Part shown: one piece after another, positions 36,426 to 40,083 of the stretch
Numbering within the stretch: the first letter of the stretch is position 1
Layout: every line of letters starts with the position of its first letter
Origin: Candidatus Limnocylindrales bacterium
GTDB taxonomy: Bacteria; Chloroflexota; Limnocylindria; Limnocylindrales; CSP1-4
NCBI GenBank assembly: GCA_037720745.1
Contig: JBBJNS010000003.1
Span: 1 to 47,118 of the forward strand
DNA: 47,118 nucleotides
Direction: 5' to 3'
Program-made: the position numbers and the translations under genes
The notes under the pieces: model-generated
Databases searched by the model: none
Told to the model about the DNA's origin: nothing
What the model saw: only the letters and a program-made list of their open reading frames with translations

Positions 36426-36459
36426 CGACGCCGTGCGCCGACCAACCGCGTAGTCCAGG

Positions 36460-36477
36460 TGTCTTTGCGCAAAGACA
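36460..36477. promoter_or_regulatory. Perfect 18-bp palindrome TGTCTTTGCGCAAAGACA, candidate non-canonical parS (copy 1, intergenic)
   Basis: 36458-36477 is identical over 20 bp to 39645-39664 inside parB. Confidence 0.7.
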
Positions 36478-36528
36478 GCTCCGCCTCCCCGACGACTGCC
36501 GCCGCTCCACTGGCGACCCGATGAGACA

Positions 36529-38082
36529 TCAGAGCGGGATGTTCCCATGCTTCTTGCGTGGATTGGACTGGCGTTTTCCGCTAAGCATCTGCAGCGCACT
36601 GATCACGCGGGGCCGGGTCTCCGACGGCATGATGACGTCGTCCACGTACCCTCGGGCGGCCGCGATATAGGGATGTGCGAACTGCTCTTCGTACTCCTCG
36701 GTCAGCCGACGGCGTTCTGCCTCGGGGTCCTCTGCCCCGGCAAGTCGGTCGCGGAAGATGATGTTGACGGCACCCTCAACGCCCATCACCGCGATCCGTG
36801 CAGTGGGCCAAGCCAGGTTTAGATCGCCGCGGATGTGCTTGCTACTCATGACGTCGTAGGCGCCGCCGTAGGCCTTGCGGGTGATGACCGTGATCTTGGG
36901 CACGGTCGCCTCCGCATAGGCGTAGAGGAGCTTGGCTCCATGGCGGATGATGCCGCCGTGCTCCTGCGCAACGCCTGGCAGGAAGCCCGGGACGTCGACC
37001 AGTGTCAGGAGCGGCACGTTGAAGGCGTCGCACGTGCGGACGAATCGGGCCGCCTTGTCCGACGCGTCGATGTCTAGTGCGCCGGCCAGGACAGCCGGTT
37101 GCTGCGCCACGATACCCACGCTCCGCCCGTCGAAACGACAGTAGCCGACGATCACATTGGCGGCCCAAGCGGGCTGCAGCTCCAGGAATTCGCCGTCGTC
37201 CACGATGAGCGCGATGACGTCGTGCATGTCGTAGGGCTGTGACGGTGCGTCGGGGATGATCGAGTCGAGGGCCAGGTCCATGCGGGCCTGGTCGTCGGTA
37301 CTCTCTCGAGTCGGTGGCTGGGAAAGGTTGTTCTGCGGCAGGTGACCAAGGACCCGACGCGCCAGCGCAAGCGCCTCTCCTTCGTCGGCCGCGGCGAGAT
37401 GGGCAACGCCGCTGATCGTGGTGTGAGTGGATGCGCCACCCAACCGCTCACGGTCGACCTCTTCGTGCGTTACCGCGCGGACCACCTCGGGACCGGTGAC
37501 GAACATGTAGCTGGTGCCTTCGACCATGATCGTGACGTCGGTGATGGCCGGGGAGTAGACCGCTCCCCCGGCACAGGGGCCCATCACCAGCGAGATCTGC
37601 GGCACCACGCCCGACGCAAGCGTGTTGCGTAGGAAGATGTCGGCGTAGCCTCCGAGAGAGACGACGCCTTCCTGGATCCGTGCCCCCCCAGAATCGTTCA
37701 ACCCGATGATGGGCGCCCCGACCTTCATGGCCAGATCCATGATCTTGCATATCTTCTCGGCGTGCGTCTCAGAGAGCGAACCGCCGAAGACCGTGAAGTC
37801 CTGGCTGAAGACGAAGACGAGCCGCCCATCGATCGTGCCGTGCCCGGTGACCACACCATCGCCCAGGTAGCGCTGCGATTCAAGCCCGAAGTCGGTCGCG
37901 CGGTGCGTCACGAAGGCGTCGAACTCAACGAACGAGTCAGGATCCAGGAGGAGGTCGAGTCGCTCACGTGCGGTTAGCTTGCCGCGCGCATGTTGCTGCT
38001 CGATCCGCAGCTGGCCGCCCCCCAGAGCGGCCTCGCTGCGCATGCGCCGCAATCGCTCGACCTGCTCGCTGTTCGTCACCAA
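36529..38082 (-). CDS. pccB: Acyl-CoA (propionyl-CoA) carboxylase carboxyltransferase beta subunit
   Basis: [46 protein letters not shown] and KKHGNIPL motifs. Confidence 0.93.
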
Positions 38083-38181
38083 GCGACCCTCCCTTAGTCC
38101 CGCACGATAGGCCGTGGCGAGCGCGCCGTATCCTACCAGCGGCCTCTGGCGCCCTCCTACACCCGCAGCTGCGCCAGGGAG

Positions 38182-38224
38182 TTGTCCACCGATTCGGTGG
38201 ACGAACCGCCCGGAATGTGGATAA
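38182..38224. promoter_or_regulatory. Cluster of DnaA-type boxes upstream of parA
   Basis: TGTGGATAA at 38216-38224 (perfect TTATCCACA on the minus strand), plus degenerate TTGTCCACC (38182-38190) and GGTGGACGA (38196-38204). Confidence 0.6.
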
Positions 38225-38258
38225 ACCGCATCGGGCGATGGCCGGATGTTTGCTACAT

Positions 38259-38290
38259 TCAGCCCTCACGCCACTCAGCCCTCACGCCAC
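38259..38290. repeat. Perfect 16-bp tandem repeat in the parA leader
   Basis: TCAGCCCTCACGCCAC twice, beginning at the end of a TACATT -10-like hexamer. Confidence 0.88.
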
Positions 38291-38324
38291 CACGTCTGCG
38301 CGGCGCCCGCTAGGAGAGGAACCT

Positions 38325-39095
38325 TTGGCCCGAGTCATCTCCATCGCCAACCAGAAAGGTGGAGTCGGCAAGACGACCACCGCCATCAACCTGGCCGGCT
38401 CACTCGCCGAGCATGGCCACCGGATCCTGTGCATCGACATGGACGCCCAAGCCAACCTGACCGTGGGGCTTGGCCTGAACCCGCGCACCATCGAACGCTC
38501 CATCGCCAACGTCCTCATCGACGCCGACGTGTCCCTCCAGGATATCGTCGTCCCGACACAGACGGCTGGCATCGACGTGGCCCCATCCGACATCGACCTG
38601 TCAGCTACGGAGAACACGCTGTTCAGCGCCATCGGTCGCGAGCACGCCCTCCGTGAAGCCATCGGAGAGTGGGCCGGCGCCCACTACGATTACATCATCA
38701 TCGACTGCCCGCCGACACTGGGACTGCTGACCATCAACGCGCTCGTCGCGTCGGAGAGCGTGATCATCCCCGTCCAGACGCAGTACTACGCGCTCAAGGG
38801 CTTCAACGCCCTGGTCAACGTCATCAACCAGATCCGCAACCGAGGCCTGAACTCGGACCTGCGCATCCTCGGCCTCCTGCCGACCTTCTTCGACGGACGG
38901 ACGCTGCTCGGGCGAGACATGCTCGCGGAGCTGAAGTCGATGGGTGACCACCACATCTTCGAGAACATGATCAAGCAGACGGTCCGGCTCGGGGAAGCGC
39001 CGTTGGTCGGGCGTCCCGTGACGACATATGCCACCAGTTCAGACGCGGCCCGTGCATATCGCGGGCTAGCCCGGGAGGTGATGGAACTTGGCTAG
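38325..39095 (+). CDS. parA: ParA/Soj family ATPase
   Basis: Deviant Walker A NQKGGVGKTTT, DMDAQANLT, IIDCPP.LG and VRLGEAP; GGAGAGG RBS before TTG 38325. Confidence 0.95.
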   Translation: MARVISIANQKGGVGKTTTAINLAGSLAEHGHRILCIDMDAQANLTVGLGLNPRTIERSIANVLIDADVSLQDIVVPTQTAGIDVAPSDIDLSATENTLFSAIGREHALREAIGEWAGAHYDYIIIDCPPTLGLLTINALVASESVIIPVQTQYYALKGFNALVNVINQIRNRGLNSDLRILGLLPTFFDGRTLLGRDMLAELKSMGDHHIFENMIKQTVRLGEAPLVGRPVTTYATSSDAARAYRGLAREVMELG

Positions 39096-40083
39096 GCCGG
39101 ACTTCAGGAGCCAAGCGGCACAGCGGCTATCCGAGGAGCGGGACCTGTCGCCCCAGATCATCAGCCTGCTCTCACCGGATCCGCACGGCAAGGGTCATAC
39201 GTCGGTTCGCACCGTCCCGCTGGACCGGATAGACCCGAACCCACAGCAGCCGCGCATGACGTTCGATGAGGACACGCTGCGCGAACTGGCAGCGTCTATC
39301 ACGGAGCACGGGGTGCTCCAGCCGATCCTCATCAGGCCGGGCGACGAGGGTCGTTACCAGCTGGTTGCTGGAGAGCGACGTTGGCGGGCGGCGCGCATCG
39401 CCGGCCTGCGGGAGATCCCGGCGCTCATCGAGGAGATCGATGACGATACAGCGCTAGAGATCTCCATCATCGAGAACCTCCAACGGGAAGACCTCTCGCC
39501 GCTGGACGAGGCGCTGATGTATGAGCGCATGACGACCGATCACGGCTACAGCTTGAGGCGCCTCGCACAGAAGCTGGGCAAGGACAAGGGCTACATCGAG
39601 AATCGATTGCGTCTAGCCGACGCACCGGCCGAGATCAAGCAGCTGGTGTCTTTGCGCAAAGACACCCTTTCGCATGCCTACGAGCTGCTCAAGGTCGACG
39701 ATCCGAAGAAGCGGCGAAAGCTAGCGGAGCAGGTCGGCCGTGGCGAGTTGAGCTTGGTGAAGCTGCGCGAACGGATCGACGGCCGACCGCCTCGGCCGAC
39801 TGACGAGGAGGTCGCTCCGCCGGAGGAGTCGGCTGCGGACGAGCCGCAGGTCGTCGAGAGTCTCCTTCCCGGCGTGCCCGTCGGCGACGACTCGCTCATC
39901 GCCGCAAAGGCTCATCTCGGTGAAGCCCTGGACGAACTCTCAGCGATCCTCCAGTCGCAAGGGGCCGTAGCCGACATCGACGCCACAGATCGTCAGAACC
40001 TGGCTAAGTACCTGACCATCGCCAAGCTGCGCCTGGAGAACGCGATCACCCAGGTTCGACTGATGGAGCAGTCTCGCCGCTAG
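39088..40083 (+). CDS. parB: ParB/Spo0J family CTPase DNA-binding protein with divergent HTH and C-terminus
   Basis: PNPQQPR, GVLQPIL, LVAGERRWRA and IIENLQREDLSPLDEA motifs; HTH SLRRLAQKLGKDKGYIENRLRL. Confidence 0.93.
   Translation: MARPDFRSQAAQRLSEERDLSPQIISLLSPDPHGKGHTSVRTVPLDRIDPNPQQPRMTFDEDTLRELAASITEHGVLQPILIRPGDEGRYQLVAGERRWRAARIAGLREIPALIEEIDDDTALEISIIENLQREDLSPLDEALMYERMTTDHGYSLRRLAQKLGKDKGYIENRLRLADAPAEIKQLVSLRKDTLSHAYELLKVDDPKKRRKLAEQVGRGELSLVKLRERIDGRPPRPTDEEVAPPEESAADEPQVVESLLPGVPVGDDSLIAAKAHLGEALDELSAILQSQGAVADIDATDRQNLAKYLTIAKLRLENAITQVRLMEQSRR
39645..39666. promoter_or_regulatory. Perfect 22-bp palindrome GGTGTCTTTGCGCAAAGACACC inside parB, candidate non-canonical parS (copy 2)
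   Basis: Read directly; it encodes VSLRKDT just after the HTH. Confidence 0.7.

Follow-up and report, generated by a model that had tools for sequence, protein, structure and literature searches.

The 47,118-nucleotide (nt) stretch of DNA analysed here, referred to throughout as the window, belongs to an uncultured soil bacterium of the Candidatus Limnocylindrales (contig JBBJNS010000003.1 of assembly GCA_037720745.1), a metagenome-assembled genome (MAG) of the Chloroflexota class Ca. Limnocylindria with 2,224,257 bases in 223 contigs, 69% G+C and an estimated completeness of 90.9%. The window carries a parA-parB gene pair, here named parA2 and parB2, which is transcribed divergently from a methylmalonyl-pathway operon on the minus strand (pccB, biotin carboxylase, BCCP and methylmalonyl-CoA mutase). 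It also carries two exact copies of an 18-nt palindrome, TGTCTTTGCGCAAAGACA, one between pccB and the biotin carboxylase gene and one within parB2 (Table 1). This palindrome, with its core GTCTTTGCGCAAAGAC, is probably the ParB2-specific loading site, parS2, of a second partition module situated 34-40% of the chromosome away from dnaA.

The initial annotation had reported the palindrome as one intergenic copy and one copy within parB, and the coordinates and exact matches of both were confirmed over the whole window. Scanning the window for TGTCTTTGCGCAAAGACA with up to 3 mismatches returned 2 matches, as against 0 in all 100 dinucleotide shuffles, and the assembly as a whole contained no copies beyond these 2 at the same tolerance. 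Identity between the copies extends over 20 nt (36458-36477 and 39645-39664), and the parB2 copy forms a perfect 22-nt palindrome (39645-39666), both as first described. The intergenic copy lies 51 nt past the pccB stop codon (36529-31) and 35 nt ahead of the likeliest ATG of the biotin carboxylase gene (36425), these genes being on the minus strand; the parB2 copy is read in the frame GTG TCT TTG CGC AAA GAC ACC.

Comparison with orthologous genes indicates that the palindrome is maintained as DNA. In a first set of loci (L006-L035) it was present with 0-3 mismatches at the same position of parB2 in 30 of 30, and 19 of these had an additional copy (≤4 mismatches) within the 1.5-kb flanks. Codon usage was then tallied over 94 distinct orthologous parB2 coding sequences, with the rest of those genes as background. 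At the site, Ser188 is encoded by TCT in 78 of 89 cases (3.0% of Ser codons elsewhere in these genes), Leu189 by TTG in 69 of 75 (6.3% elsewhere), Lys191 by AAA in 78 of 85 (4.9% elsewhere) and Val187 by GTG in 90 of 94 (29.7% elsewhere), so that the rare codons TCT, TTG and AAA are used at 88-92% at the site versus 3-6% in the remaining gene. Lineages without the intragenic site carry SARSDT, ATRSDT, AERSDT or SQRYDT at that position, written in ordinary codons, and the VSLRKDT peptide itself is therefore not required. The check proposed in the initial annotation, that of synonymous-site conservation at the VSLRKDT codons across orthologues, thus came out in favour of the site: the rare codons are kept, the palindrome is conserved in orthologous parB2 genes, and on this comparative evidence the site inside parB2 is under selection at the DNA level.

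The copy located 3' of pccB was compared over 59 unique orthologous copies. Its core (positions 2-17) is 90-100% conserved at each position, the outer T and A are kept at only 73% and 80%, and the flanks are unconserved. Because the outer pair is poorly kept and conservation does not extend into the flanks, the site is not clearly longer than the canonical 16-nt parS, and the longer site that had been proposed at first gives way to a conserved unit of 16 nt, the core GTCTTTGCGCAAAGAC. Wherever copies of the palindrome fall in coding sequence they were always found in one frame, giving S-L-R-K/T-D, as in ParB2, at the start of biotin carboxylase, in TrpD (LSLRKDG) and in a MenC-like protein (LSLRTDT) (loci L148 ~3074, L149 ~3055, L052 ~3459 and L170 ~2350); the other two frames (CLCAKT and VFAQR) were not seen among the coding copies.

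The distribution of ParB2 and of the site was examined in five families of the class (f1 to f5, f2 being Limnocylindrus). All genomes concerned are MAGs, and the tallies include the unpublished genomes G003 and G004 (loci L007 and L009, also in the alignment of 94 coding sequences), G159, G132, G168 and G173, with no claim based solely on these. With coverage of residues 3-325 as the criterion, 117 of the 120 further genomes of the class have a ParB2 orthologue (35/35 in f1, 5/5 in f2, 37/39 in f3, 39/40 in f4 and 1/1 in f5). Within the order, 56 of 60 relatives gave a match at ParB2 level (E ≤1e-74), the remaining four being 64-87% complete, and in a sample of the phylum the C-terminal domain of ParB2 (residues 262-331) was detected in 21 of 21 genomes of the class and in 0 of 180 other Chloroflexota.

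At the level of the class the site follows this distribution, with exceptions in two families. In f1, 40 of 41 genomes have 1-4 sites at ≤2 mismatches (reversed control, 0 in all 41), and the single genome without a site is 54% complete. A class-wide scan with the 16-mer at ≤1 mismatch found the site in 35/35 genomes of f1, 36/40 of f4, 1/1 of f5, 1/39 of f3 and 0/5 of f2, the control pattern being absent from all 121 genomes. In the phylum sample the site occurred in 19 of the 21 genomes of the class; outside it, single matches in 4 of 180 genomes represent background, since the control pattern matched 5 of 180. The site is thus restricted to the class that bears ParB2. Four of the five families show linkage of the site to parAB2, and parB2 is the only gene for a DNA-binding protein that is so linked. 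Among the matches listed, 25 genomes had two or more sites, and in 23 of these a single contig holds every listed site within a span of 7.9 kb, in the parAB2-pccB region; the exceptions are G024 (two contigs with a parB2 copy each) and G064 (dispersed sites). These placement counts rest on the listed sites, with 54 further matches outside the listing. Of the clustering that the initial annotation had anticipated near parAB or the origin, the former was borne out in most lineages and the latter was not, the sites lying away from dnaA.

The placement of the sites was followed family by family. In f1 and f4, which belong to two orders and whose ParB2 proteins are only ~50% identical, the arrangement is MCM <- BCCP <- BC <- [site] <- pccB <- [site] / parA2 -> parB2 [site] (MCM, methylmalonyl-CoA mutase; BC, biotin carboxylase), and the synteny of pccB is kept in both. 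The middle site, between pccB and parA2, has been lost in the window's own genus, and a site upstream of parA2 is present in all 8 f4 loci fetched and in many f1 loci. In f4 a tRNA gene stands between this site and pccB, and the distance from the site to parA2, which lies downstream of it, is 116-123 nt in 7 of the 8 loci. Where a gene has been inserted before the carboxylase gene (L066, L071, L079, L080, L089 and L092), the copy 3' of pccB remains beside pccB, and in many genomes it forms the first codons of the carboxylase gene, for example M-V-S-L-R-K-D-T in L052. A divergent f1 clade (G073-G076, ParB2 ~55-58% identical) has four sites per genome (control 0): one in the gap between parA2 and a divergent mutase gene, 147-185 nt upstream of parA2, one inside trpD, one in the N-terminal part of a menC-like gene and one past a gene for a thiamine pyrophosphate (TPP) enzyme. 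Synteny holds for every one of them, in 2-4 genomes that share 70-88% nucleotide identity, and the copies in the trpD and menC coding sequences suit a parS-type site better than an operator.

In the two remaining families treated here the sites are less regular. A plain palindrome search found none in the Limnocylindrus (f2) loci, where a relaxed pattern revealed a degenerate copy only, ~110 nt upstream of parA2. No consensus site was found within 5 kb of parAB2 in f3; one genome of this family, G087, has four degenerate copies within 5 kb, accompanied by genes for an aminopeptidase, a UvrD/PD-(D/E)XK helicase and a major facilitator superfamily transporter. Three genomes share the f3 copy past the helicase stop codon at a syntenic position, which in G079 is 47 kb away from parB2. 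With copies at trpD, menC, TPP-enzyme and helicase genes, the motif is not confined to acyl-CoA genes, contrary to what the initial annotation had named as an outcome that would speak for a transcription-factor operator. The regions upstream of parA2 in f3 and f5 (L163-L169 and L176), which are without the palindrome, carry another inverted repeat that is conserved (type GCGCGCCGCTTCCACGCGC), together with an opposite-strand tRNA gene, the same tRNA gene that in f4 lies between pccB and parA2.

ParB2 has Pfam matches to ParB_N (PF02195, 3.2e-36) and HTH_ParB (PF17762, 2.7e-18), where HTH denotes the helix-turn-helix domain, and its residues 39-230 align with PDB structures of Noc, Spo0J and ParB at 5e-43 to 1.5e-34; the match to the KorB structure is far weaker (8qa8, 1.9e-17). 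NPxQPR, GERRxRA and ENLQR are the motifs through which ParB binds cytidine triphosphate (CTP). Across 34 ParB2 orthologues NPxQPR, GERRWR and ENLQR are invariant (N51, P52, Q54, P55, R56, G95, E96, R97, R98, W99 and R100, and likewise E129, N130, L131, Q132 and R133). The other features first noted in the protein, namely GERRWRA, ENLQRE, GKDKGYIENRLRL, TLSHAYELL, the missing LGRGL and the helical C-terminus, were all present. The LG(R/K)GL peptide, which activates ParA, was found in none of the 47 proteins with a KDKGY helix, versus 75 of all 151 proteins; the ParB2 orthologues share another N-terminal peptide, MARPDFR, of which F6 and R7 are invariant in the 34 orthologues.

In the account of ParB and Noc specificity, positions 173, 179, 184 and 201 (Caulobacter numbering) are given as specificity-setting, with RTAG in ParB and QKKR in Noc, and R173 as invariable among the parS-specific variants (PMC7383237). 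Alignment with Caulobacter ParB places K167, R173, D178 and S195 of ParB2 at these positions, giving KRDS, and ParB2 lacks the combination of R173 and a small residue at position 201 by which canonical parS is recognised. The K, R and S are each found in 94 of 94 orthologues and the D in 68 of 94, and the recognition helix, GKDKGY(I/V)ENR(L/I)RL, is invariant in all five families.

No Pfam match was obtained past residue 229 of ParB2. The AlphaFold2 model (predicted local distance difference test score, pLDDT, 85.5) contains the N domain and the HTH domain, followed by a disordered linker (232-266) and, at 267-330, a helical hairpin. Modelling residues 262-331 as a homodimer gave a score of 0.53, compared with 0.00 for the best of 3 controls, with at least 84% contact agreement between runs and pLDDT of at least 74; this mark was reached by 20 of 30 solved pairs and 1 of 23 solved single chains, figures that apply only approximately here because an alignment of our own was used. 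The model supports dimerisation of ParB2 through its C-terminal domain. A protein atlas search with the C-terminal part gave a best score of 0.78, which is under any useful level, and the names of related ParB clusters were only the generic "ParB family". Six metagenomic relatives (P0026, P0033, P0037, P0039, P0056 and P0078), 48-53% identical to ParB2, have a helix of the form GK(G/S)KGY(I/V)(E/Q)xRLRL and are without LGRGL. The Chloroflexota sample contained none of them outside this class, and such GK(G/S)KGY proteins may represent further second-ParB families in other phyla.

ParA2 matches the Pfam families AAA_31 (2.1e-61) and CbiA (9.5e-24) and is 44% identical to the other ParA of this genome, ParA1. 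The stop codon of parA2 overlaps the start of parB2 by 8 nt, and parA2 adjoins parB2 in relatives from all five families.

Table 1. Genes and sequence elements around parAB2 in the window, in order of position
Feature	Positions	Strand	Description
Methylmalonyl-CoA mutase gene	32737..34332	-	Pfam MM_CoA_mutase
BCCP gene	34360..34893	-	Pfam Biotin_lipoyl
Biotin carboxylase gene	34848..36425	-	Pfam Biotin_carb_N, CPSase_L_D2, Biotin_carb_C
Putative parS2 copy between pccB stop and biotin carboxylase start	36460..36477		Exact match
pccB-type carboxyltransferase gene	36529..38082	-	Pfam Carboxyl_trans 2.7e-200; divergent from parA2; flanked by sites in relatives
DnaA-box-like cluster	38182..38224		TTGTCCACC 38182-90, GGTGGACGA 38196-204, TGTGGATAA 38216-24; pccB/parA2 intergenic
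parA2	38325..39095	+	Soj-type ParA ATPase, 256 aa, TTG start after GGAGAGG box
parB2	39088..40083	+	ParB-family CTPase/HTH protein, 331 aa, TTG start
Putative parS2 copy inside parB2	39647..39664		Exact match; core GTCTTTGCGCAAAGAC at 39648-39663; codes V-S-L-R-K-D-T

Several further features of the window are recorded here. Genes for the beta and alpha subunits of succinyl-CoA ligase (plus strand) and for methylmalonyl-CoA mutase (minus strand) occupy 29270-34332, beside the carboxylase genes, and carboxylase, mutase and ligase together make up a full route from propionyl-CoA to succinyl-CoA next to parAB2. A tandem direct repeat of 16 nt (CATTCAGCCCTCACGC / CACTCAGCCCTCACGC) is located at 38256-38287, directly upstream of the parA2 ribosome-binding site. 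Scans of 36300-38400 returned 0 sigma-70-like promoter sites and 2 terminator-like sites, no more of the latter than shuffled sequences yield. Elsewhere in the window are a fragment of an MT-A70-like methyltransferase gene (44120-44704), a class A bacterial RNase P RNA (23036-23395, minus strand, 182 bits) and a tRNA gene (4352-4425, minus strand).

The genome contains exactly two genes with ParB_N and HTH_ParB domains, parB2 and a second one, parB1, on contig C53. The latter belongs to a standard parA-parB pair with gyrB next downstream, and ParB1 has an N-terminus of the LGRGL type (...GGLGRGLSALIP) together with GERR, ENLQR and GRSRPAVANTLRLL. Genome-wide, canonical parS has just two matches with 2 mismatches, which are 60 nt apart and lie 150-210 nt upstream of parA on C53. 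No canonical parS is present in the window, as the initial annotation had stated, and the three matches found in the genome at ≤3 mismatches are on C53 (two) and C23. The search that it had recommended for a second, canonical parAB/parS set was therefore successful, and because canonical parAB and parS sites sit on C53, the pair in the window constitutes a second system, ParA2/ParB2. A second ParB match at the level of ParB1 (~40% identity) was likewise found in most of the 60 relatives in the order. On C53 (locus L005, 6697-6760) parB1 is broken at its second recognition element by a nearly pure G run of ~60 nt, which looks like an assembly artefact; because this run interrupts the gene, residue 201 of ParB1 is unreadable.

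The chromosomal position of parAB2 was measured in relatives with longer contigs. The distance from dnaA to parB2 is 39.6% of genome length in G035, 40.1% in G029 and 38.4% in G153 (f4), each a single contig, and ~34% of contig C2 in G082, an assembly of two contigs. In G035, G029 and G013 a distance of 28-40 kb separates dnaA from the gene for the canonical ParB. GC skew in twenty 20-kb samples of G035 was noisy and showed no clear switch, and since it was uninformative the origin was placed from dnaA and the canonical system (ParABS1) only.

The intergenic region between pccB and parA2 also contains a cluster of DnaA-box-like sequences (Table 1). The box at 38216, TGTGGATAA, is the sole perfect TTATCCACA in the assembly, and no perfect TTATCCACA was found in G035 or G029. 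At ≤1 mismatch, DnaA boxes are present in 71 of 75 regions upstream of parA2 (two in 44 and one in 27), compared with 64 such matches in the whole 2.2-Mb genome of the window. Two-box regions mostly have a convergent pair spaced 33-35 nt from start to start, and in f4 the site is situated between two DnaA boxes. This pattern suggests a DnaA input to parAB2, as far as can be judged from sequence. Two other box clusters were observed in the same assembly: at least 5 DnaA-box-like sequences in ~90 nt on contig C42 (9520-9620), with no AT-rich stretch, and a convergent TTATCCACG pair 32 nt apart on contig C24 (16678-16718). Neither is beside dnaA, which is on C174.

The initial annotation had proposed a co-evolved pair of ParB and site, and each computational check that was run supported it; from these comparisons we infer site-specific binding, CTP switching, interaction with ParA2 and a cellular role in partition. 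In the mechanism proposed, ParB2, dimerised through a helical C-terminal domain of its own, would read parS2 through an HTH domain with altered specificity residues, and would ignore canonical parS because those residues differ from the ones of both ParB and Noc. ParB2 would bind CTP through GERRxRA and ENLQR, shut as a clamp and slide, and the 2-4 sites, ~1.6 kb apart, would give rise to a small nucleoprotein complex that covers parAB2 and pccB. On this complex ParA2 would act through the conserved peptide MARPDFR, so that ParABS2 would position or segregate a chromosomal region 34-40% of genome length from dnaA. Sites also adjoin the parA2 promoter region and the starts of pccB and of the gene for biotin carboxylase; autoregulation of parAB2 by the complex is accordingly probable, and some damping of carboxylase gene expression is possible.

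A more far-reaching version, which seems rather doubtful at present, would have two orthogonal centromeres on one chromosome, with parS2 fixed ~125-145 degrees from dnaA and wired both to DnaA, through the box pair at the parA2 promoter, and to the carboxylase operon, such that one CTP-switch clamp controls the segregation of the late-replicating half together with a metabolic operon. The second centromere may be the trace of an ancient fusion of a chromosome with a chromid, kept beyond a class-level evolutionary span.

A number of observations weigh against parS2 as the loading site of a partition module. Chromosomal parS sites nearly always lie near oriC according to PMC7383237, and parAB2 lies 34-40% of genome length from dnaA in genomes whose closure as single contigs is unconfirmed. 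The middle site of f1 is 10-33 nt upstream of the pccB start, where operators would sit, the extragenic sites of f1 and f4 fall among the opening codons of the biotin carboxylase gene or at most ~114 nt before it, and in f1, in f4 and in the divergent clade parAB2 always has methylmalonyl-pathway genes as neighbours. In that clade the four sites are hundreds of kb apart, which is unusual for a centromere. The ParA-activating LG(R/K)GL peptide is missing from ParB2. Families f3 and f2 have degenerate sites only, in f3 not beside parAB2, and since both retain ParB2, in f3 with the same recognition helix, the link between site and ParB2 is not strictly one to one. In the window's family the extragenic sites lie where pccB and the biotin carboxylase gene begin, and they may therefore act in regulation.

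The main alternative, unlikely but to be taken seriously, builds on this last point: ParB2 would bind the palindrome but act mainly as a KorB-like, CTP-dependent repressor of pccB, the carboxylase, the mutase and its own operon (perhaps with ParA2), coupling propionyl-CoA metabolism to the cell cycle without any segregation. The positions at the two 5' ends fit such a repressor, as does the location of parAB2 beside methylmalonyl-pathway genes, which holds for two orders and also for the divergent clade, with its divergently transcribed mutase gene next to parAB2. The small number of sites, none of them near the origin, the DnaA-box-like sequences in the same intergenic region and the match to KorB, a ParB-family repressor of solved structure, are also in keeping with it. 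ParB2 is, however, closer to ParB and Noc than to KorB, and the Pfam KorB domain (PF08535) falls under its cut-off in ParB2 (21.3 versus 22.3 bits). The best-conserved copy of the site is 560 nt inside parB2 and not at a promoter, conserved copies lie in trpD and menC, past the TPP-enzyme gene and, in f3, past the helicase gene, and in f4 the site is cut off from pccB by the tRNA gene but keeps its distance to parA2 in 7 of 8 loci. Moreover, ParB2 has kept a complete ParA partner.

That the palindrome is instead the operator of another transcription factor, of the PrpR, PccR or RamB kind, with the parB2 copy as a distal auxiliary operator and ParB2 unrelated to it, is quite improbable. PMC3420887 describes the binding of Mycobacterium tuberculosis PrpR to a TTTGCAAA palindrome, which the core TTTGC-GCAAA resembles; copies flank pccB, and f3 retains ParB2 without consensus sites. 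The spacing of the half-sites is nevertheless 2 nt off that of TTTGCAAA, the core being TTTGCGCAAA, and searches that detected their positive controls gave no ScfR domain (PF09856) in any of 6 genomes (that of the window and five relatives, 88-94% complete where given). As some sites are moreover at genes unrelated to propionate, a regulator of the PrpR type is unlikely. The intragenic copies, held by rare codons ~1.5 kb from the nearest promoter, and the finding that no regulator gene except parB2 is syntenic with the sites point the same way.

A Noc-like clamp for nucleoid occlusion or chromosome organisation, without a partition role, had been offered in the initial annotation as a second possibility; it fits poorly and is very improbable. 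ParB2 is a ParB paralogue with changed specificity residues, and its best similarity in PDB and NCBIfam is to Noc (5.3e-43; TIGR04285, 9.4e-58), but the TIGR04285 score of 195.5 bits is well under the cut-off of 315, the specificity residues are KRDS and not QKKR, the N-terminus is polar, ParB2 has its own ParA and there are only 1-4 sites per genome. An RNA hairpin, such as a processing or translational-coupling element at the pccB/carboxylase junction, is hardly credible: a 7-bp stem could form and the position at the pccB stop and carboxylase start, often a few nt from an overlapping stop and start, would suit it, but the inner pairs 2-8 show no compensatory double change over 145 sites, one-sided changes include the non-pairing CA, GA, TC and AC, the sequence and not mere pairing is kept at unrelated loci, and Rfam has no family match at the palindrome, so that together with its conservation the element is better explained as a protein-binding DNA site than as an RNA helix.

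Should ParB2 bind the palindrome, as favoured here, it would form with parS2 a natural, fully orthogonal ParB/parS pair beside the canonical pair on one chromosome, and KRDS would join RTAG and QKKR as the third naturally occurring set of residues at the four positions that set specificity. The pair would then be a candidate for orthogonal ParB-based DNA labelling tools, and the question would be raised of why a 2-4 Mb chromosome keeps two partition modules throughout a class, one of them distant from the origin and built around a metabolic operon. By the comparative evidence the parB2 copy also appears to be a clean example of a protein-binding site maintained in coding sequence by rare codons. 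Orthogonal ParABS sets on separate replicons, and Noc as a specificity-switched ParB paralogue, are already known. In a literature search that did not extend to supplements, no publication on an additional ParABS system, or on a new parS, was found for Chloroflexota or Limnocylindria, nor any paper in which a whole class shares, on a single chromosome, a second set of ParA, ParB and parS that has both a new site and a new domain for C-terminal dimerisation; these parB genes may be listed in Dataset S1 of PMC12704722. PMC13371061, which deals with a structure in a 5' mRNA region, has no bearing on this system.

Compared with the chromosomal ParABS (Soj/Spo0J) systems of Bacillus, Thermus and Caulobacter, ParABS2 has the same parA-parB operon, the ParB_N CTPase motifs and the HTH domain, and its putative parS2 is likewise a 16-nt palindrome with TGT...ACA ends, present in few sites clustered near the operon. 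One parS of Bacillus subtilis lies inside spo0J, and one of the ParABS2 sites is similarly within parB2. Unlike these systems, ParABS2 is the second in its genome and has another site sequence, KRDS in place of RTAG, no LG(R/K)GL peptide and a C-terminal helical hairpin without a Pfam match, and its locus is 34-40% of genome length from dnaA and not adjacent to it.

KorB-IncC of plasmid RK2 serves both partition and repression, and resembles ParABS2 in combining a ParB-family protein and a ParA partner with palindromic sites in or near promoters. ParB2 differs from KorB in being chromosomal and class-wide and only remotely related in sequence (8qa8, 1.9e-17). Noc has many dispersed sites, the Noc-binding sites (NBS), and binds the membrane. 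Like the Noc/NBS system of Firmicutes, ParB2 is a paralogue beside a canonical ParB with changed HTH specificity residues; unlike Noc, an orphan with QKKR, it has a ParA, KRDS and 1-4 sites. That Noc arose as a ParB paralogue, and that few HTH residues switch the DNA specificity, is described in PMC7383237.

The comparison extends to multipartite genomes, with no second replicon or replication initiator seen beside parAB2. Such genomes carry replicon-specific ParABS systems, for example ParABS2 of Vibrio cholerae and that of the Thermus megaplasmid, and the Limnocylindria resemble them in having two apparently orthogonal sets per cell, each with its own site sequence. The difference is that in the Limnocylindria both sets are located on one contig (in G035, G029 and G153), an arrangement that is found class-wide.

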